The position numbers and the translations under genes were made by a program. DNA of 63,685 bases, counting the filler, from an uncultured archaeon (GTDB lineage: Archaea > Iainarchaeota > Iainarchaeia > Iainarchaeales > 1-14-0-10-31-34): assembly GCA_964442255.1 (NCBI GenBank). It is 4 parts of 4 records of this genome, joined end to end, with 100 filler letters (N's around TTAATTAATTAA, not from the genome) between each part and the next. Parts side by side here need not be neighbours in the genome. Positions count along the whole stretch, not along the records: positions 1 to 25,619 come from CAYTYC010000021.1; 3 more parts are not named here. One strand, given 5' to 3'. This document shows, one piece after another, positions 3,002 through 62,119 of this stretch; position 1 is the first letter of the stretch; the number at the start of each line of letters is the position of its first letter. Below the pieces are notes generated by a model, which was not told the origin of the DNA, made no database searches, and was given only the letters and a program-made list of their open reading frames with translations.

Positions 3002-3111
3002 ATATCCGGGGCTTGCTTTTGGTCAGCCCCCCTGACAGTTTCCCCAGTTTTTCCATGTCCTCAACCGCCACCCAATGTCCGGGGCTTGCTTTTGGTCAGC
3101 TCCCCTGACAG
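3002..3111. repeat. Repeat-insert-repeat unit: 37-bp direct repeats (3002-3038, 3075-3111) around a 36-bp unique segment
   Basis: atatccggggcttgcttttggtcagcccccctgacag vs atgtccggggcttgcttttggtcagctcccctgacag (2 mismatches). Internal hairpin potential (ggggct/agcccc, gtcag/ctgac). Confidence 0.85.
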
Positions 3112-3395: not shown

Positions 3396-3755
3396 TCAGT
3401 CCTCAACCTTCAGCCCCAACTTCTTTTTGTGCTCCTTAAGCACGTACCTGTAATCCTGATAATGCTCAAGCACTTTTACTATAACCGGCTGTTCCCCAGG
3501 CCGTGTCATCTGTTTCTGGTAAATGTCAAAATAAAACTTTTTTGTTTCATTTGGCTGCACCTTATTCAGGCGCTTGGTTTCACTGCTTTTCAGCCCGCCC
3601 TTGTCCAGCGCCAGCTGCCTGGTTAAATTCAGCTCCAGGGAAAGGTCTTTTTCCTCTTGGCCCCTGTTGATTATTTCCACGGTCAGCGAAACAGGTGCCC
3701 TTCTCTTCAGGCTTAGCCTGTAAGGGTTAAAGTAAGTGTTGATTGAAACTGCCAT
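3396..3755 (-). CDS. Hypothetical protein, probable Ig-like beta-sandwich
   Basis: GGTGAG RBS upstream. Alternating beta-strand pattern (LTVEIINRG...VQPNETKKFYFDI). Confidence 0.7.
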   Translation of the reverse strand: MAVSINTYFNPYRLSLKRRAPVSLTVEIINRGQEEKDLSLELNLTRQLALDKGGLKSSETKRLNKVQPNETKKFYFDIYQKQMTRPGEQPVIVKVLEHYQDYRYVLKEHKKKLGLKVED

Positions 3756-4188
3756 CTGCGGCTCACCCCATTAAAAAAGGTGATAAATGTTTTTTAATTA
3801 ATGGGAAAGCCTTAAATTCACTCCAAACCATTATTATGTAGATGTCACAAAGGGTCAAGTCAATCCGGAGCAGGGAGGACATTCCCGGGGAAAATTTGGT
3901 CAAGCTTACCCGGGAAAGCCTTCTTATCCCGAAAGGCAGCGGGAAATGTGGAGGGCTTGGCTTAAAAGGGCTGAATACAGGCGCCTAAGGCCCTGACCTT
4001 TAAATACAACTGCGTGCATGTCTGCCCGAGGTGCGCAACTTCTGTGAGCTGACCTTTTTAAGGCCCTGGCCTTTAACCTTAACGCCAAGAAGCCTATAAC
4101 CTAAACTTTGTTAGGTTATAGATGAATTGGCATAACCTAACAATAGATTTATAAAAACAATAAGGGTAAAATAAATAAGGTGTAAAAA

Positions 4189-4608
4189 GTGAAATACAGT
4201 TTTGATAAGAGTGCCCATTCCGTTTATACACTGAACTACCATTTTGTTCAGTGCATCAAATACAGAAGAAATGTTTTAGATTTTCCTGAAATAATTGATG
4301 AACTGAAGTCAAGAACGAAAAAGATAGCAGAGAGCTATGGCATTGATATTTTGAGCATTGAAACCGATTTAGACCATGTTCATATTCTATTCAAGTGCAA
4401 GCCACAGACTAACCTAATTAAGTTTGTGAACAATTGGAAAAGTGCAACCTCAAAAGTTCTGCAAAGAAAATTCAAAAAACAGATAAAGAGCAAGTTATGG
4501 AAAAACACTTTTTGGAGTGGAAGCTATTGTTTGATAACAACAGGGCAGACAACATTAGACCAAATAAAAAAGTATGTTGAAAGTCAAGGGAAGGGAAAAG
4601 AATTATGA
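4189..4608 (+). CDS. tnpA: IS200/IS605 Y1 HUH transposase
   Basis: HSVYTLNYHFVQCIKYRR, HUH motif DHVHIL, LWKNTFWSGSY, catalytic Tyr in KKYVESQ. Confidence 0.96.
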   Translation: MKYSFDKSAHSVYTLNYHFVQCIKYRRNVLDFPEIIDELKSRTKKIAESYGIDILSIETDLDHVHILFKCKPQTNLIKFVNNWKSATSKVLQRKFKKQIKSKLWKNTFWSGSYCLITTGQTTLDQIKKYVESQGKGKEL

Positions 4609-5759
4609 TGGCATACAAGTTTAGGTTGTATCCAACAGTTCAACAAGAACCGATGTTGCTAAAAACATTTGATTTGTGCAGGTTCACATATAACCAGCTT
4701 TTAGAAATGCTGAACAAACAAGAAAAGATAAACAGAGGAGAAATTCAGCATACTCTTGTTGCTTTGAAAAAACAACACCCAGAACTGCAAGAGGTTTATT
4801 CAAAGACTTTGCAGTATGAGTGCCATCGCTTGTTTGGCAATCTGCGAGCATTAAGCAAATTAAAAAAGCAAGGGAGAAAAGTTGGAAGGTTGCGATTCAA
4901 GGGAAAGGAGTGGTTCAAAACTATTCAGTTCAATCAATCAGGATACAAGCTAACTAAAACAGGTAAAAGGCACGATAAACTGGAGCTGTCAAAAATTGGT
5001 TCGCTGAAAATAAGATGCCACAGAAAAGTTTTAGGGAAAATAAAGCAAATAACAATCAAGAAAACTGCTGGAAAATGGTATGCAATTCTGGTAACTGATA
5101 CAGTTCGCAAACTCAAGAAAGGAACAAAAAGTTTGGGAATTGATTTGGGCATAATCAATTTTGTTGCAGACAGTGAGGGAAACAAAATCAGTTCTCCCTT
5201 ATTTTTGAAAAAGAGTTTGAACAAAATAAAACAAGCATACAAGGATTTGAGCAGAAAAAAGAAGGGAAGCAATAACAGGCAAAAAACAAGGCAAAGGCTT
5301 GGCAAGCTATTTGAAAAAGTTGAAAACCAGAGAAACGATTTTCTGCACAAGGTTTCCACTAACTACATTCAAGAATGCAATACGCTTGTTCTGGAAAAAC
5401 TGCAAATCAAAAACATGGCGAGAAAGCAAAAATATTGGAACAAGAGAAATTTTATGGATTGTTCTTGGGGCAAATTCATTTCTATGCTGAAATGCAAGGC
5501 TGAAAGTGCTGGCGTTGAAGTGCTTGAAGTGAACCCGAAGAACACAAGCAAAATGTGCAGCAATTGCGGAATGCTGCAAAAAATCCTATTATCGCAAAGA
5601 ACATACTCTTGTGAATGTGGGCTGGAAATGGATAGGGATGTAAATTCCGCTAAAAACATATTGGCTTTGGGACAAGGCTTTGTGGAGAACGAAAGCAAAG
5701 TAAGTAGTTCTATGAAGCAAGAAGCCATATCCTCAACAGGAGATGCAATCTCATGTTAG
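4605..5759 (+). CDS. tnpB: TnpB RNA-guided endonuclease
   Basis: AYKFRLYPT N-terminus, RuvC-I GIDLG, RuvC-II VLEKL, zinc finger CSNC...CECG, RuvC-III DRDVNSAKNI. All three catalytic acids are present. Confidence 0.96.
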   Translation: MMAYKFRLYPTVQQEPMLLKTFDLCRFTYNQLLEMLNKQEKINRGEIQHTLVALKKQHPELQEVYSKTLQYECHRLFGNLRALSKLKKQGRKVGRLRFKGKEWFKTIQFNQSGYKLTKTGKRHDKLELSKIGSLKIRCHRKVLGKIKQITIKKTAGKWYAILVTDTVRKLKKGTKSLGIDLGIINFVADSEGNKISSPLFLKKSLNKIKQAYKDLSRKKKGSNNRQKTRQRLGKLFEKVENQRNDFLHKVSTNYIQECNTLVLEKLQIKNMARKQKYWNKRNFMDCSWGKFISMLKCKAESAGVEVLEVNPKNTSKMCSNCGMLQKILLSQRTYSCECGLEMDRDVNSAKNILALGQGFVENESKVSSSMKQEAISSTGDAISC

Positions 5760-5790
5760 GTTATGGTAGTTCACATACAACTGCCCAATC
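5690..5790 (+). ncRNA. Predicted omegaRNA/reRNA 3' region overlapping the tnpB end; guide begins at 5775 (atacaactgcccaatc...)
   Basis: Inferred from established IS605 architecture plus the right-end hairpin and TCAC boundary seen here. The 5' boundary is not determined. Confidence 0.55.
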
Positions 5791-5910
5791 CTCTACGGGA
5801 ACTTCTACAAGCCGCACTGACCTTTGCCAAAACCCTAACCTTTAAATACAACCTTTGAATTATCTATTACCAAAGGAAAAACTTTTTTTCCCCGATGGCG
5901 GCGCAAAAAA

Positions 5911-6384
5911 ATGGCTGAATTCCCTGAATCAGAGTTAATACGAAAAACATTCATTGTCCGTGAAATGGACCTTCCCCCGAATGTGAAGCTCACCAGGCGT
6001 TCCCTGCTCCGCTGGTTTGCGCTCGGTTTTGGCTTAATCTCTGAAAAAGAATCCCGCACAACAGTGTTTGAAATCCTTGATGCACTCTTTACTTTAACGC
6101 TTTCCAAAAACCAGCCCCCCACAACGCCGGAGGTGCGGGCCTTCATTAAGGAGCGCTCAAAAAAAAAGGTTTCTGAAAAGCTTATCCGCTACCATTTGAA
6201 CAAACTAATTGGCCTCAATATCCTCCAAAGAAAGAAAATGCGCTATTCCTTCAACCCGTCCCCGAATGCGGAGCGCGAGGATTTGAAAAGTGCCTTCAAT
6301 TTCCACGTCACAAATTCCCTCCAGAAAACCGCAACAAATTTGGAGGAAGTCTTCCGCTCCCTTTCCGAGAGCTATAAAAAGTAA
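5911..6384 (+). CDS. Conserved archaeal winged-helix protein, putative regulator
   Basis: LLRWFALGFGLISEKESR and helix-turn-helix-like VSEKLIRYHLNKLIGLNIL. TATA box tttaaata at 5841-5848. Confidence 0.7.
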   Translation: MAEFPESELIRKTFIVREMDLPPNVKLTRRSLLRWFALGFGLISEKESRTTVFEILDALFTLTLSKNQPPTTPEVRAFIKERSKKKVSEKLIRYHLNKLIGLNILQRKKMRYSFNPSPNAEREDLKSAFNFHVTNSLQKTATNLEEVFRSLSESYKK

Positions 6385-6402
6385 TTCCTTCGTTTGCTTT
6401 TT

Positions 6403-7215
6403 ATGCCTGCAATAATTGTCTCAAAAACCGATTTGGCAGGATTGAACATAAAAAAACAGCTCACCGAAAACTTTTCCTTCAAGGAAACCGGAAAAGAGTT
6501 CGACGCAAACCCGGTTCTCTCAAACGGGAAACTCGAACTCTTCACAATAAACGGGGCCCAGATTTTTGCCGATTCGGTGAATCGCATTGAAACGGACCTG
6601 TTCATTTTCGCCTCCCGGCACAAGTCAGCCTCCGAAAAACCCACTTTAACAGCCCACCCCATCGGAAACTTTTCCGGGGCTGAAATGGGGGGAAAAGACT
6701 CAACTTTAATTCCCACCTCCGCCCTCGCATTAAAGTATTTCCTCCTCGCGCTCCAGGCCCGAAAGGAATCCAAAAGCCTTTCCTATGAAGTGTCCCTTGA
6801 ATGCACCCACCACGGCCCTTTCCTAACCAGGCCGGCTGTTTTCGTTGAGCTGGGCTCAAGTGAAGCGCAGTGGAAAGACGAAACCGCCGCAGAATCCGTG
6901 GCTGAAACAATATCCTCTTTTTCTCCCGCAAAAAACGATTCCAAAATTTGCATTGGCTTCGGCGGAGGCCATTACTGCCCGTCCTTCACCCAAATTGAAC
7001 TCCGCTCTGGCTTCGCTTTCTCCCACATCATGCCTAAATACGCTTTCCCTTCATTAGGCCGGGAAATAATCCGCCAAATGGTTTCCTCCACAAAGGAAAA
7101 GGTTTCCTTCGCTGTTTTGGATTGGAAGGGCCTGGGAAAGGAAAAACAAAAGCTTGCCTCCTTGTTGGAGGGGGAGGGGCTGGAAATAATCCGTTCAAAG
7201 GATATTGAAAAATAG
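6403..7215 (+). CDS. dtdA: D-aminoacyl-tRNA deacylase (archaeal DTD2)
   Basis: FASRHKS, LTAHPIGN, LECTHHGP, FVELGSSE and GFGGGHY motifs. Confidence 0.93.
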   Translation: MPAIIVSKTDLAGLNIKKQLTENFSFKETGKEFDANPVLSNGKLELFTINGAQIFADSVNRIETDLFIFASRHKSASEKPTLTAHPIGNFSGAEMGGKDSTLIPTSALALKYFLLALQARKESKSLSYEVSLECTHHGPFLTRPAVFVELGSSEAQWKDETAAESVAETISSFSPAKNDSKICIGFGGGHYCPSFTQIELRSGFAFSHIMPKYAFPSLGREIIRQMVSSTKEKVSFAVLDWKGLGKEKQKLASLLEGEGLEIIRSKDIEK

Positions 7216-15117: not shown

Positions 15118-15359
15118 TTTTTTTTACCTTTTTTTTCCGTTTTTGATGAAATTTTTCCTAAAATTTTCTTTTGATAAACTTTTCCTCACAGTTCTTTTTA
15201 CCTTTTTTTTCCGTTTTTGATGAAATTTTTCCTAAAATTTTCTTTTGATNNNNNNNNNNNNNNNNNNNNNNNNNNNNNNNNNNNNNNNNNNNNNNNNNNN
15301 NNNNNNNNNNNNNNNNNNNNNNNNNNNNNNNNNNNNNNNNNNNNNNNNNAAACTTTTCC

Positions 15360-25594: not shown

Positions 25595-25849
25595 CATGAA
25601 TCTCACACAGGGTCAGGGGNNNNNNNNNNNNNNNNNNNNNNNNNNNNNNNNNNNNNNNNNNNNTTAATTAATTAANNNNNNNNNNNNNNNNNNNNNNNNN
25701 NNNNNNNNNNNNNNNNNNNTTTTTTTTTTTTTGCGTTCCCAGCGGCCCGTACTTCAGCGGTTTTTTTGTGTTCATTCCCTCCGCTTTCATTTCCTTTTCC
25801 AGGGAGGATGGGGCAGTACTGGAAATGAACCTCCCTTTTTTCATCCACC

Positions 25850-25959
25850 CAGCCCTTTCCCGCCGCCAATTTCACTAAGGAAGCGCCAATTTTCCGCCGC
25901 CATTTCGGGGCAAAAGCGCCAGCAGACTTTTCCACCGCCAATTTCACTAAGGAAGCGCC
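25850..25959. repeat. Repeat-insert-repeat unit: ~37-38-bp direct repeats (25850-25887, 25923-25959) around 35 bp
   Basis: The 25-bp core ccgccaatttcactaaggaagcgcc is identical at 25863 and 25935; the 5' part is degenerate. The insert partly resembles the repeat. Confidence 0.7.
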
Positions 25960-25972
25960 CAATGCAAATGCA

Positions 25973-47653: not shown

Positions 47654-48593
47654 TGTTACGTGACAGCGCTTATGACTCCGTTTTTTCGCTTGTTTCTATA
47701 AACTTGGTTGGGCGTTCTGTATTTAAGGCTTGAGTGTGGCGTGTTGTTGTATTCGCGCGTAAAGCGCGCCAACAACTGGTTGGCGTGGGCAATGCTGCGC
47801 ACAGTGTAGCGGGAGAGGTATTGCTTGATTTTTTTGACTACCGCTTCTGCTTTGCCGTTGCATTTTGGGTTGTGGACGCGGGTGCGAATGTGTTTGATTC
47901 CTTTGAGTTGTGCATCAAAGTTTTTGCGGTATTGGCGGCCGTTGTCTGTTAGCATGGCTTTGAATCCGCCTGTTTGTTTTCTGGCTAACCTGAGGTTGTC
48001 GAGAGTGTTTTCAAGCGTTGACCGCTCATACGCCTTTAACGCAAACAGTTTTCTGGAAGCGTCATCCTCGTAGAATGAAAAATAACAGCGTACTCCGTGT
48101 AAAATGCGTTTTCTGCTCCAATCAGTGTGCATTAGAGACAATGCGTGTTTTCGCTCATACCGGCGTACCTTTACTTTTGGTTTTGGTTGTTCAGGAAACC
48201 ATTTTTTCTTATAACGCTGTATTGTCCTCAAACAGCGTTTTTTGAGCTTCAACCACGTTAACGTAGTTGACAGGCCTTTTGATAAAAGAGCCTTCATTTC
48301 ATCCAATAACGGTTGAATGGTCTTGTTCCAAACCCGCTTTGCGGTCCGCTTAAAGCGCATAGGCTGGCCGGATTGTTTTCGTTTCTTTCACCGGCCAAGA
48401 GTCTTTCTTGGCACTTTTATTGCCTTTTCAAACGCTCGCAAGCTCATGTCGCCCGACATGAGCCTATCCGCAATCTTTTCAACAAAATCGCTACCATACT
48501 TCATAGGGAAAACCTCCATTCCACAAACAAATAATGGAGTTTTCCCCAAAAAAACCTATTTCACAGTGGGGACATATCCGCTGTCACCAAACA
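47654..48593 (-). mobile_element. IS481-family insertion sequence (940 bp)
   Basis: TGT...ACA ends. Imperfect TIR tgttacgtgacagcgcttatg vs tgtttggtgacagcggatatg. Flanks catagt / cttagt differ by one base. Confidence 0.88.
47656..48504 (-). pseudogene. IS481 DDE transposase with an in-frame TGA at 48388-48390
   Basis: GGAGG-preceded ATG at 48504 reads MKYGSDF...VPRKTLGR*KKRKQSGQPMRFK into the rve core (HTD, DDASR, TDNG, NGKAE, YNN..PHSSL). Confidence 0.82.
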
Positions 48594-49603
48594 CTTAGTC
48601 AATGTTCCGGGAATCTTCCTTTCCCAGCCCACGGTGCAGGTTAAAGTAAAGTCTGATGTTTTTGATTCCCCGAACTATGTGCAGTTTGTTCCGCAGGCCC
48701 TTTCCCAGCATGTGAGGCAGATTCCTGAAAACAGCGGTTACTTCCTTGAAAGCTATTACACCGCAACCGGAAAATACCTTAAGACCGAGCTTTACGGCTT
48801 TGATTCAATGGGAAGCAGTGTTCCCCTGCAAAACTCTTTGACAGGCTACGGGCTTGAAGCCGAGGGAGGGGCATTGAAGGGATTTGCGGAGAACGGGTCC
48901 CCTGAAAACCTGTATTTGGGGGTAACCTCTTACAATGAAAGCGCTTATTCCAGGCTTGAAATCATTACCCCGGACGGGGTTCCGCACACTTTTAACAGCG
49001 GAACAGACTTCTTCAAGTCCGCCTATTACCCTCCGTGGAATATCTGCTCAACTTCCTTCGCAAACAGGGTTATTGCCCCTCCGTGCCAAGTGGGGCTGTA
49101 CCAGATCCACTGGTTTGATTCGGGGCTGTTCAACTTTCGCGGAATCTTCACTTCATCCGCAATCTTCATTGTACCAGATCCACTGGTTTGATTCGGGGCT
49201 GTTCAACGGCGGCCCCTTTGAATTGCGGCAGAACGCCTACTTTGACGGCTCAACCTTTACTGTAATGTTGCCTCTGCCAACGCCTGACCCTGAATCCATT
49301 ATTGAAAACAGTTCCGAAAACCCGGTGGATGTCGAGGTAACACTTAAACTCCGGAAATATTCTTCGGACTGGGCCTGGCAGGACGTGGAAGTGTTTCTGG
49401 GCAATTCCCCGAAAACAATCCCAGCATACAACTTCCTGGACTTAACCGATTATTGGAATGTTTCACAGGGGCTGAATTACGGAAGCTACCGCGCGTACCT
49501 AAAGATTACCTCCGCGGATGGGGGGAAAATTGTGAGAACAAAAAACTTTAATGTCGTGAAACCAAAGTCCCAGGAAGAACCAATGGCTCCGGTTATCCCC
49601 TGA
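48594..49603 (+). pseudogene. Truncated, frameshifted gene for a beta-rich (surface-type) protein
   Basis: The frame is open right from the IS481 end. Track ORFs 48634-49191 and 48935-49603 fuse into one frame if the 73-bp unit at 49097-49169 is removed (...LYQIHWFDSGLFNGGPFELRQ...). Confidence 0.7.
49097..49207. repeat. Repeat-insert-repeat unit: perfect 38-bp direct repeats (49097-49134, 49170-49207) around a 35-bp insert
   Basis: tgtaccagatccactggtttgattcggggctgttcaac twice; insert tttcgcggaatcttcacttcatccgcaatcttcat. Confidence 0.9.
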
Positions 49604-51251: not shown

Positions 51252-51485
51252 GCTTTTTAGGAAACCTTGTAAATGCTTTGCGTCGTTAAAAAACCTTTCG
51301 GTTTTTTGACGCGTCNNNNNNNNNNNNNNNNNNNNNNNNNNNNNNNNNNNNNNNNNNNNTTAATTAATTAANNNNNNNNNNNNNNNNNNNNNNNNNNNNN
51401 NNNNNNNNNNNNNNNTGGACCCGGAGGGAATCAAAGAAACTTTTGGAAAAAGTTTCATCAAAAGAAACGATTCCCTGGCTTAAAT

Positions 51486-51578
51486 TGGACCCGGAGGGAA
51501 TCGAACCCTCAGTCTCAGCCTCTTCCGGAACTGGAAAAGCCCTGCGAAGGCCGTATGTTACCATTACACTACGGGCCC
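51486..51578 (-). tRNA. tRNA-Ala(CGC) with a 21-nt intron at 37/38 (intron 51522-51542)
   Basis: Acceptor GGGCCCG/CGGGTCC with the G3:U70 alanine identity pair; anticodon stem CGGCC/GGCTG, loop TT-CGC-A|A; BHB helix TTCG/CGGA; T-loop TTCGATT. Confidence 0.93.
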
Positions 51579-56652: not shown

Positions 56653-58481
56653 TTATTTAACAAGCGCAAGCAAATTGTTCGCCAATTTTTCCGGGTCGTG
56701 GCGCAGGTAGTCCTTTTTGTTCCAGTGCACCCTCGGCGCGGAGGAATCCTCCAGAATGTCTGCGCGCACAATCTTTGTTTTGCCGAACGAATCCTTCAAG
56801 TCATNNNNNNNNNNNNNNNNNNNNNNNNNNNNNNNNNNNNNNNNNNNNNNNNNNNNNNNNNNNNNNNNNNNNNNNNNNNNNNNNNNNNNNNNNNNNNNNN
56901 NNNNTCCAGAATGTCTGCGCGCACAATCTTTGTTTTGCCGAACGAATCCTTCAAGTCATCCTTCACAAGGAATGCGCCCTGTTCCTCGTATTTTTTCAAA
57001 AGCTTTTTGGAAGGATTTTTGGAATTCAGGATTGAATAATCCAAAACATTTTTTCCCAAATATTTTTCCACCTGGTTTAAGTGCTGTGCCGCAGTATATG
57101 AATCCGTTTGCCCGGGCTGGGTCATCACATTGCAGATGTAAACCTTTCTCGCACTTGATTTTTTAATCGCTTCAGGCACTCCCTCCACCAAAAGGTTTGG
57201 AATAATGCTGGTAAACAGGCTTCCGGGCCCAAAGACAATCAAATCCGCTTCTTTTATCGCCTCCAAAGCCTCTTTCAGAGGCCTTGCTTTCCTTGGCTTA
57301 AGGAACACCTCCTGTATTGGGGGCTTTCCCGGCTCATAGACATTGAAGTCCTTTTCCACTGTTCTCCCGTCCTCCAGCTTCGCGCAAATCTGCACGTCCT
57401 CAAGGGTAGAGGGCAGAACCCGCCCCTTAATGCGCAAAATTTTGCTTGTCTCCTTTATTGCCTCCAAAAAGTTTCCCTTAATTTTGCTTAAGGCCGCAAT
57501 GAAAAGGTTTCCGAAGCTGTGGCCGTTCAGGGAATTCCCTTCCCCAAACCTGTACTGAAAAAGGTCCAAAAGGAGTTTTTCGGAATCGGATAAGGCAACA
57601 ATGCAGTTCCTCAAATCCCCGGGAGGCAAGACATTCAAGTCCTCCCTCAGCTTGCCCGAGCTTCTTCCGGCGTCAGTCACAGTGACTATTGCGGTGAGGT
57701 TGGAGGTGCGCTGCTTCAAGCCCTCCAGAACGTTTGGAAGCCCTGTGCCTCCGCCGATCGCGACAATTTTGGGCGGGTTTTTAGCTGATTCAATTTCATC
57801 CAGCAAAGGAATTAATTCGGAAACCTTTTTGATTTTGAAGTCCGGCTGCTCCAACGCGTTCTTTGGTTTGAGTGAAGAAAACCTGCCGTGCAAAAACTGC
57901 ACGGTGTTCATTCCCAAAGAATTCGAGATTTTAATCTCGGAATGGATTCTGTCCCCGACTGAAACGATTTCCTCCGGTTTTAGGCTGAAGTGGTCCATTG
58001 CCTCAAGGAAAAAGTCTTCCTTGGATTTGTCCAAGTCAACGTCATGAATTAAAACCAAATCAAAGAATTTTTTGAGCCCGAGTTTCCTGATTTTTTTCCT
58101 CTGCCTTGCGTGCACCCCTGAAGTGACCAGAATAAGCCTGAATTTCTTCTTTAATTCCGCAAGGGTTTTCGGAACATCAGGGAAAGGGGAAATGTTTTCC
58201 ACGATGTCCGCGTTGTAGGCAAGGAAAGCCCTTTCTTTTGCCCCCTCGTTCTTTACCCCAAACTCTTCGCAGACTTTGTCGAACACGTTCACCCGGGGAC
58301 CGAATTTTTTCGCGTAAAACTCCTGTTTTTCAAGAAGCTCTTTTTCCGTGCAAGGAATGCCGCTGTTAACCAAGGACTTTGCCGCGCGCTTTCTCGCGTT
58401 TTTCACCAGGGAACCGGAGCAGTCAAAAAGCGTGTCGTCCAAATCAAAGATTATTGCCTTCAGTTTCCCCATGCCCTTCAC
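56653..58481 (-). CDS. Fusion of a HAD-family hydrolase and a YvcK/GlmR (CofD-like, UDP-GlcNAc-binding) domain; spans a scaffold gap
   Basis: FDLDDTL, VTSG and VGD HAD motifs, then IGGGTGL, DAGRSSG, PPGDLRNC, GHSFGNL, GPGSLFTS, NVMTQPG. The C-terminus ...LRHDPEKLA... resumes on the other side of the gap. Confidence 0.88.
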
Positions 58482-61895: not shown

Positions 61896-62119
61896 NNNNN
61901 NNNNNNNNNNNNNNNNNNNNNNNNNNNNNNNNNNNNNNNTTAATTAATTAANNNNNNNNNNNNNNNNNNNNNNNNNNNNNNNNNNNNNNNNNNNNGGTGC
62001 ATGGGTTTGCATTATTCAAAATCAGGTTGCGGGCCTTTATAAACCCGGTTAGCAGTTACTGAAACGGGGAAAAAAAGGGGACAGAAAAATTAATTAAGGG
62101 GAAAAAGCGTTAAATCCTT

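Follow-up and report, generated by a model that had tools for sequence, protein, structure and literature searches.

We analysed a 63,685-nt stretch of DPANN DNA (Iainarchaeota/Diapherotrites group; G+C content 46.6%), called the window below, in which an insertion sequence (IS) of the IS200/IS605 family lies inside the middle one of three ~38-nt direct repeats, upstream of a gene for a winged helix-turn-helix (wHTH)-like protein. The repeats, the segments between them (inserts), the IS and the gene are arranged as follows.

3976..4013, plus strand: repeat 1 (R1) in a 38-nt frame, an extra copy of the core of the predicted wHTH promoter; its TTTAA (3999-4003) directly precedes a 10-nt match to the presumed guide of the IS.
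4014..4048, plus strand: insert 1 ("spacer" 1), 35 nt, a fragment of ileS in sense orientation; homology to its source runs to 4050.
4049..4076, plus strand: left 28 nt of repeat 2 (R2), ending in the TTTAA target (target-adjacent motif, TAM), placed by joining the flanks and by the left ends of related elements.
4077..5774, plus strand: IS200/IS605-family element, 1698 bp, its limits set by four left-end and six right-end comparisons.
5775..5784, plus strand: right 10 nt of R2, placed by joining the flanks.
5785..5816, plus strand: insert 2 ("spacer" 2), 32 nt, unique in the window.
5817..5854, plus strand: repeat 3 (R3), the predicted native promoter of the wHTH-like gene, with its TATA box at 5842-5849, aligned with the single promoter of nine relatives.
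5875..5891, plus strand: inverted repeat GGAAAAA..TTTTTCC in the 5′ leader, nearly invariant across relatives.
5911..6384, plus strand: wHTH-like gene, 157 aa, with no Pfam or NCBIfam match.

The first-pass annotation of this DNA had proposed that removing the IS rebuilds a repeat, and it does: joining the flanks by script gave a third TTTAAATACAAC unit that lines up with the copies at 3999 and 5841, at spacings of 73 and 71 nt. Its placement of a TnpB-encoding IS605 at 4077-5774, inside the middle of the three repeats, was likewise borne out by Pfam domains and by the ends of related elements (4/4 left, 6/6 right). The exact 14-mer occurs twice in the window and a third time after rebuilding, where 0.67 matches would be expected even with two mismatches allowed. 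The R1-R2 period is 73 nt and the R2-R3 period 70-71 nt. Identity amounts to 28/38 between R1 and R2, 29/39 between R2 and R3 and 27/40 between R1 and R3, so the three are not near-identical repeats; R1 and R2 nevertheless agree at 27 of their 28 3′-terminal nucleotides, and every other mismatch between them falls within the first 10 nt.

The locus was also followed in Logan contigs from three runs, aligned to window positions 3400-6400 and matched in two of them (X1 and X2). In both of these further samples the two IS junctions and the repeat units match the window without differences, the comparison being one of contigs only. No contig of the three runs joins across 4077-5774, although such contigs drop rare variants. 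Contigs from X1 and X2 break at the left-end hairpin of the IS (window 4100-4137), and one X2 contig differs before 4100; such broken and variant contigs show that other copies of the IS, or relatives of it, are present in the same community.

Relatives of the wHTH-like protein turned up at 26 loci in genome_contigs and at 29 in metagenome_contigs; full-length identity never exceeds 65%, although three partial matches reach 73%. A single promoter copy was found in all 53 upstream regions of these relatives (53/53, one region being only 10 nt long), and R1 and R2 are therefore lineage-specific extra copies. TTAAAT is invariant in 10/10 aligned upstream regions, together with the conserved leader inverted repeat, which is probably an operator, to judge by its position and conservation. 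Read from this alignment, R3 is the conserved predicted promoter of the downstream wHTH gene. The motif (A)TTATGTA(G/T)A recurs in the intergenic DNA beside the wHTH gene, on either side of the promoter, at 3833-3845 in the window and in relatives L007, L013, L016, L020-L026 and L041-L050.

Inserts 1 and 2 are unrelated to each other, and each is unique in the window. In both X1 and X2, window positions 4014-4050 also match a different Logan contig at 35 of 37 positions with unrelated flanks, at a depth similar to that of the window's own contig (8.39 vs 9.2 in one sample, 4.2 vs 5.4 in the other). In-frame translation shows that contig to encode the zinc knuckle of a class I aminoacyl-tRNA synthetase, and the 12-residue translation of insert 1 matches the VHVCPRC... 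site of the top tRNA-synt_1 gene in 5/5 relatives; the gene was identified as ileS by TIGR00392 (843 bits vs a cut-off of 621). Against the ileS DNA of those relatives only 24-28 of 37 positions are identical. Judged by these matches, insert 1 is a recent copy of ~35-37 nt of the organism's own ileS and not a diverged copy of insert 2. No source was found, at the DNA or the peptide level, for insert 2, for the 140 nt at 3846-3985 or for the A, C and D inserts of the loci described below; the comparison covered the window together with 128 loci (803 kb) taken from metagenome contigs and other Iainarchaeota. The first-pass annotation had taken both inter-repeat segments for coding fragments, which is right for the first, a piece of ileS; the second has no source among the sequences compared.

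The same spacing recurs elsewhere in the window. A scan for local direct repeats (28-nt window, at least 26 identities, offsets 40-400) returned eight hits including R1/R2, compared with none in each of 20 shuffles, and four of the eight were spaced 72-73 nt apart. In a looser scan over offsets 40-160, offset 73 accounted for three hits and offsets 45 and 72 for one each, with one further locus at 117; none appeared in five shuffles. Two of these loci have the layout of R1, insert 1 and R2, and are referred to here as sibling scars.

3002..3111, no strand assigned: sibling scar A, intergenic, a 37-nt duplication (35/37 identical) around a 36-nt insert, period 73.
49097..49207, no strand assigned: sibling scar D, two exact 38-nt copies with a 35-nt insert between them (period 73), which split the orphan gene 48634-49603.

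Once 73 nt are taken out of scar D, two overlapping frames (218 and 225 codons) merge into a single frame of 331 codons. The split gene has no homologue among 214 Iainarchaeota genomes, and the direction of the event at scar D is for this reason read solely from the restored frame. The inserts differ from one another at all scar loci, and those of scar D and scar A (the latter taken as 3039-3074) have no exact match in viral_contigs. The duplicated target of scar A holds a small GC-rich palindrome, and the reverse complement of the scar D insert resembles a gene start (ATG followed by 11 codons). At 25855-25962 lie three ~36-nt copies, the first and third more alike and the middle one diverged, as in a tandem triplet or in a scar whose insert came from neighbouring DNA; two 44-N runs are found just upstream, at 25620-25719.

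Outside CRISPR arrays beside Cas1, no repeat with an offset of 70-76 was found in the 128 related loci. Inside such an array, at a Cas1-Cas2-Cas4 locus of the same phylum, a 37-nt repeat recurs with periods of 72, 73, 72, 73 and 72 nt. Iainarchaeota locus L115 (G100:C7:1-20000) holds an array with a 37-nt repeat, a DNA methylase, a ResIII helicase, Cas1-Cas2-Cas4 and a tyrosine integrase, with a TnpB relative (53% identity) 7 kb beyond the integrase. Locus L127 (G115:C11:466-2336) is an array of 30 repeats; in reverse complement the repeat ends in ...TCTACTGTGGTAGAT and resembles Cas12a repeats.

Duplications and inserts of fixed length, combined with inserts of unrelated sequence, point to an enzyme with a ruler, and a CRISPR spacer integrase acting off target is, to our knowledge, the only enzyme that leaves such a footprint. 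We therefore lean towards reading the repeats as scars of off-target spacer integration ("neo-CRISPR" scars), a reading that we hold to be reasonably probable. In the course of events we would propose, where integrase, timing, omegaRNA and promoter activity are all inferred, a Cas1-Cas2-type spacer integrase would have acted outside a CRISPR array, and two successive spacer-sized insertions (~32 and ~35 nt), each with a ~38-nt target duplication, would have multiplied the wHTH promoter. The older event would be that of insert 2, whose flanking repeats R2 and R3 now agree at 29/39 positions, and the younger, upstream one that of insert 1, copied from the organism's own ileS. R3 would have stayed the working promoter, leaving R1 and R2 as spares with weaker upstream bases resembling a B recognition element. 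The autonomous IS would have inserted later by the usual single-strand mechanism, 3′ of TTTAA, the TATA core of the spare R2; it may be placed last because R1 copies an intact, IS-free R2. Insertion into a spare promoter copy costs nothing.

Several results weigh against this reading. Cas families were absent from the 46 window open reading frames (ORFs) scanned, and Cas1 was found in only 17 of the 214 phylum genomes and in none of the five nearest relatives searched. The first 10 nt of R1 differ from those of R2, whereas a clean 38-nt duplication predicts a match. R2 and R3 agree at only 29/39 positions with a period of 70-71 instead of 73 nt, and given this divergence and this period the older of the two events may have been an ordinary promoter duplication. 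The duplicated targets of scar A, of this locus and of scar D share no recognisable motif, and compared with the six CRISPR repeats recovered from the phylum they are at best marginally alike; the best likeness, between target B_R3 and the repeat of locus L120 (15/300 shuffles), is not significant over the comparisons made. The locus 25855-25962 (spacing 72) was not counted as a scar, as its "insert" resembles its own repeat and a tandem triplet is preferred. Finally, scars A and D are known from the window assembly alone, unlike the 3400-6400 locus with its two further samples.

Some of these points suit an account without any integrase, in which replication slippage, unequal recombination or template switching duplicated the promoter two times over, repair captured filler that included the ileS piece, and the IS later entered a spare TATA box. 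The repeated unit is indeed the promoter, the repeats are degenerate, with partial copies of CTGRCCTTT inside them, the unit's first 10 nt are missing from R1, a 2-nt microhomology (CT) marks where insert 1 ends on the right, and neither the window nor the nearest relatives yielded cas genes. Slippage or template switching, however, gives no cause for a fixed period, and this account has to accommodate three independent loci within 62 kb that share 73-nt spacing, 37-38-nt duplications and unrelated 35-36-nt inserts, while other offsets are nearly empty and 803 kb of related DNA contain no such case. We regard ordinary duplication as a possible but doubtful explanation. The first-pass annotation had itself allowed that the units might be duplicated TATA promoters; the repeated unit does correspond to the downstream promoter, but a mere duplication fits poorly with the 73-nt footprint and the ileS insert.

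A working orphan mini-array, with its cas locus elsewhere in the genome, would also account for the layout. The repeat and spacer sizes (38/35/38/32/38) are typical, and the position of the younger insert, at one end, agrees with polar growth. Identity of just 28/38 and 29/39 between successive repeats argues against a functional array, as does the middle repeat, split by 1.7 kb; R3 is the conserved predicted promoter, insert 1 would target the cell's own essential ileS, and none of the six phylum CRISPR repeats resembles R1-R3. We give this possibility very little credence. The description "CRISPR-like" hence suits the way the repeats probably arose, in view of the repeat-spacer geometry, the captured first segment and the sibling 73-nt scars, and fails for a functional array, in view of the degenerate repeats and the lack of cas genes in the window.

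Off-target integration by Cas1-Cas2 and the resulting neo-CRISPR loci were reportedly described by Nivala, Shipman and Church in 2018. According to a preprint (bioRxiv 10.1101/148544), off-target spacer integration spawns neo-CRISPR arrays in E. coli, and two other species provide no more than circumstantial evidence; two further articles (PMC6698737, PMC7054753) also treat it. The window resembles these cases in its spacer-sized, unrelated and, at one site, self-derived inserts, in target duplications of repeat length, in having several sites per genome, and in a unit as long as that of a genuine array from the same phylum (72-73-nt periods, in another genome). It differs in that its scars are natural and not induced, that the integrase would have to be supplied by inference, that the site is a promoter, that two inserts at one site yield a three-repeat unit, and that one duplication is incomplete (28/38). 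With canonical and orphan CRISPR arrays the locus shares ~38-nt direct repeats and unique segments of 32-35 nt; unlike them, it has repeats only ~74% alike, no nearby cas genes, no shared repeat family and one repeat that doubles as a promoter.

The element within R2 has the following parts (G+C content 35.9% for the element, compared with the 46.6% of the whole window).

4093..4120, plus strand: left-end subterminal hairpin with an 11-bp stem, 17 nt inside the left end and kept in relatives.
4189..4608, plus strand: tnpA, Y1 (HUH) transposase, 139 aa (PF01797, E 3.1e-36, profile positions 1-121 of 121).
4605..5759, plus strand: tnpB, RNA-guided nuclease, 384 aa (PF01385, PF07282, PF12323).
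5555..5774, plus strand: right end and presumed omegaRNA scaffold, conserved to ...TTCAC and divergent thereafter.
5721-5772, plus strand: right-end terminal hairpin, kept in 7/7 aligned elements.
5775..5794, plus strand: presumed 20-nt omegaRNA guide, equivalent to the homing target, predicted from IS605/TnpB biology (PMC10640517).

The TnpA translation retains the HVH motif and the C-terminal Tyr. TnpB residues 3-353 align with ISDra2 TnpB (8bf8) at E 1.1e-36, an alignment that keeps GIDLG, the Glu of LEKL and DRD, with both CxxC pairs of the zinc finger in place; these include what are presumably the three RuvC Asp-Glu-Asp catalytic positions, which we assigned by eye from the usual motif positions. 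TnpB relatives occur in 26 of the 214 phylum genomes (E <= 1e-20), the nearest being 65-70% identical, and a nucleotide search with the IS in five relatives returned one 38-nt match, at chance level. Homology at the left end begins at TTTAA in 4/4 relatives with an aligned left end, and the right end stops at GTA(G/A)TTCAC in 6/6 relatives, whose flanks differ beyond it. In the window CCTTTAA closes the left flank and ATACAAC opens the right one; joined, they rebuild CCTTTAAATACAAC with no extra bases, which shows insertion 3′ of TTTAA without target duplication. By these features the element is a complete, autonomous IS200/IS605 (tnpA and tnpB) and a new member of a known family.

The target sequence ties the element to promoters. 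TTTAA is the core of the archaeal TATA box, and this IS family therefore tends to occupy promoters. In 5/6 relatives the right end of the related IS copy is followed, after 34-93 nt, by the start of an ORF, and from such sequences the family seems to land in TATA boxes. The IS-less window contains 133 + 118 TTTAA sites and only 6 + 4 TTTAAATA sites, three of them within this locus. Among the right flanks of related copies (L057, L058, L059, L074, L083), several rebuilt targets read TTTAAATA or TTTAAAATA.

The report on SisTnpB1, from a tnpA+tnpB element of Sulfolobus islandicus, gives TTTAA as TAM, a seed at +1 to +10, and cutting of the non-target strand at 15-18 nt and of the target strand at 20-28 nt (PMC10640517). 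Like that element and ISDra2 (PDB 8bf8/8exa), the window IS combines a Y1 transposase with a TnpB, subterminal hairpins, a RuvC triad and a zinc finger, is inserted 3′ of TTTAA without duplication, and has a conserved right end followed by a variable guide. Unlike them, it comes from a DPANN metagenome, its nearest TnpB is 65-70% identical, and it sits in a TATA box. The element adds an Iainarchaeota IS family with a TTTAA target; as an IS it is routine.

As in every such element, the homing guide of the TnpB-omegaRNA would be the flanking 16-20 nt, and the presumed guide at 5775-5794 consists of the last 10 nt of R2 and the first 10 nt of insert 2. Compared with R1 it matches the first 10 nt after TTTAA and 13/20 positions overall, and compared with R3 the first 7 nt and again 13/20 overall, so that weak binding or cutting of the sibling repeats by TnpB is conceivable from these partial matches. 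The first-pass annotation had drawn attention to a guide made of repeat tail plus spacer; the guide is so placed, but this carries no special significance, as a guide taken from the flank follows from any IS605 insertion.

Such matches bear on the proposal that the locus records TnpB cutting, in which the guide matched a sibling unit after tandem duplication and survivors exchanged the post-seed target for insert 1. Insert 1 does start exactly at +11 after the R1 TAM, past the seed and before the cut zone given for SisTnpB1 (PMC10640517), and R1 and R2 are near-identical over 28 nt. Scar D, however, has a like geometry with neither TTTAA in its duplicated target nor an IS nearby, R1 copies an IS-free R2 and the duplication is accordingly older than the IS, and three separate events would be required. 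We consider cutting by TnpB a highly unlikely origin of the scars.

The first-pass annotation had likened the locus to a very early step in the association of TnpB with CRISPR. On this proposal TnpB would be guided by repeat-derived RNA or by neighbouring spacers, on the way to a type V system. In a further form of it, stray spacer integration would have created a newborn CRISPR array in the promoter, and the later IS insertion would let the omegaRNA run on into repeat-spacer-repeat, so that TnpB could take captured segments from read-through RNA as alternative guides. The IS right end does abut the repeat tail, insert 2 and R3, which a read-through omegaRNA would include, and R1 contains TTTAA followed by a perfect 10-nt guide match, the length of the SisTnpB1 seed (PMC10640517). 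Cas12 is described as descended from TnpB, and TldR as TnpB-derived repressors. With these the locus shares a TnpB guide region that matches promoter (TATA) sequence and adjoins repeats, and it differs in the intact nuclease motifs of its TnpB, the presence of tnpA, repeats unrelated to the omegaRNA and no sign of domestication.

The sequences themselves argue against any such link. Type V repeats pair with a scaffold or with a trans-activating CRISPR RNA (tracrRNA). R1-R3, compared with the IS and its right end on both strands, showed no similarity or complementarity, with alignment scores at or below shuffle means; in all 12 comparisons the observed score was equalled or exceeded in 88-200 of 200 shuffles. 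The relatives of the element use TTTAA at unrelated sites, and TnpB groups with ISDra2 TnpB and not with Cas12f by E-value (1e-36 compared with 4e-8 or worse for the best Cas12f chains). With tnpA intact, the usual TTTAA target, repeats unlike the right end, no cas genes in the window and a TnpB nearer to ISDra2, the claim of an early TnpB-CRISPR step was not upheld. A nascent TnpB-CRISPR association appears to us scarcely credible, and a newborn array supplying guides to TnpB equally so; if true, it would show in nature the first step that has been postulated between TnpB and type V CRISPR. The IS and the repeats instead appear to be two unrelated things, neighbours by accident.

Three readings of the units made by eye were set aside: a C/D-box small RNA (no C box is present), a small ORF (its GTG lies too near the TATA box), and a weak fourth unit near 3914 with a "TAM-deleted" copy at 3971-3979, neither distinguishable from chance. 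TRF and ARAGORN gave no match at the IS/repeat locus, and an Rfam scan of the window found only a tRNA. The flanking genes are as follows.

3396-3755, minus strand: divergent 119-aa gene on the other side of the IS locus.
6394-7215: D-aminoacyl-tRNA deacylase gene, directly after the wHTH-like gene.

Elsewhere in the window, a DDE (rve) integrase ORF (47656-48360) lies 0.7 kb from scar D, and a tRNA-Ala (CGC) gene at 51486-51578 is 93 nt long, a length that suggests an intron, although none was reported by either tool. N runs occupy 15250-15349, 51316-51415, 56805-56904 and 61896-61995; at 56748-56960 the two sides of the 100-N run (56805-56904) repeat the same ~55 nt, which resembles a scaffold gap with overlapping ends.

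This DPANN genome carries several sites at which a ~38-nt duplication surrounds a ~35-nt insert: one insert is self-derived (ileS), one breaks a gene, and one site was probably hit twice, which gives it the look of a three-repeat array. If an integrase is present in the organism, off-target spacer integration would mean that adaptation enzymes mutate their own genome, and the scars would offer evidence from nature on the way new CRISPR arrays arise.

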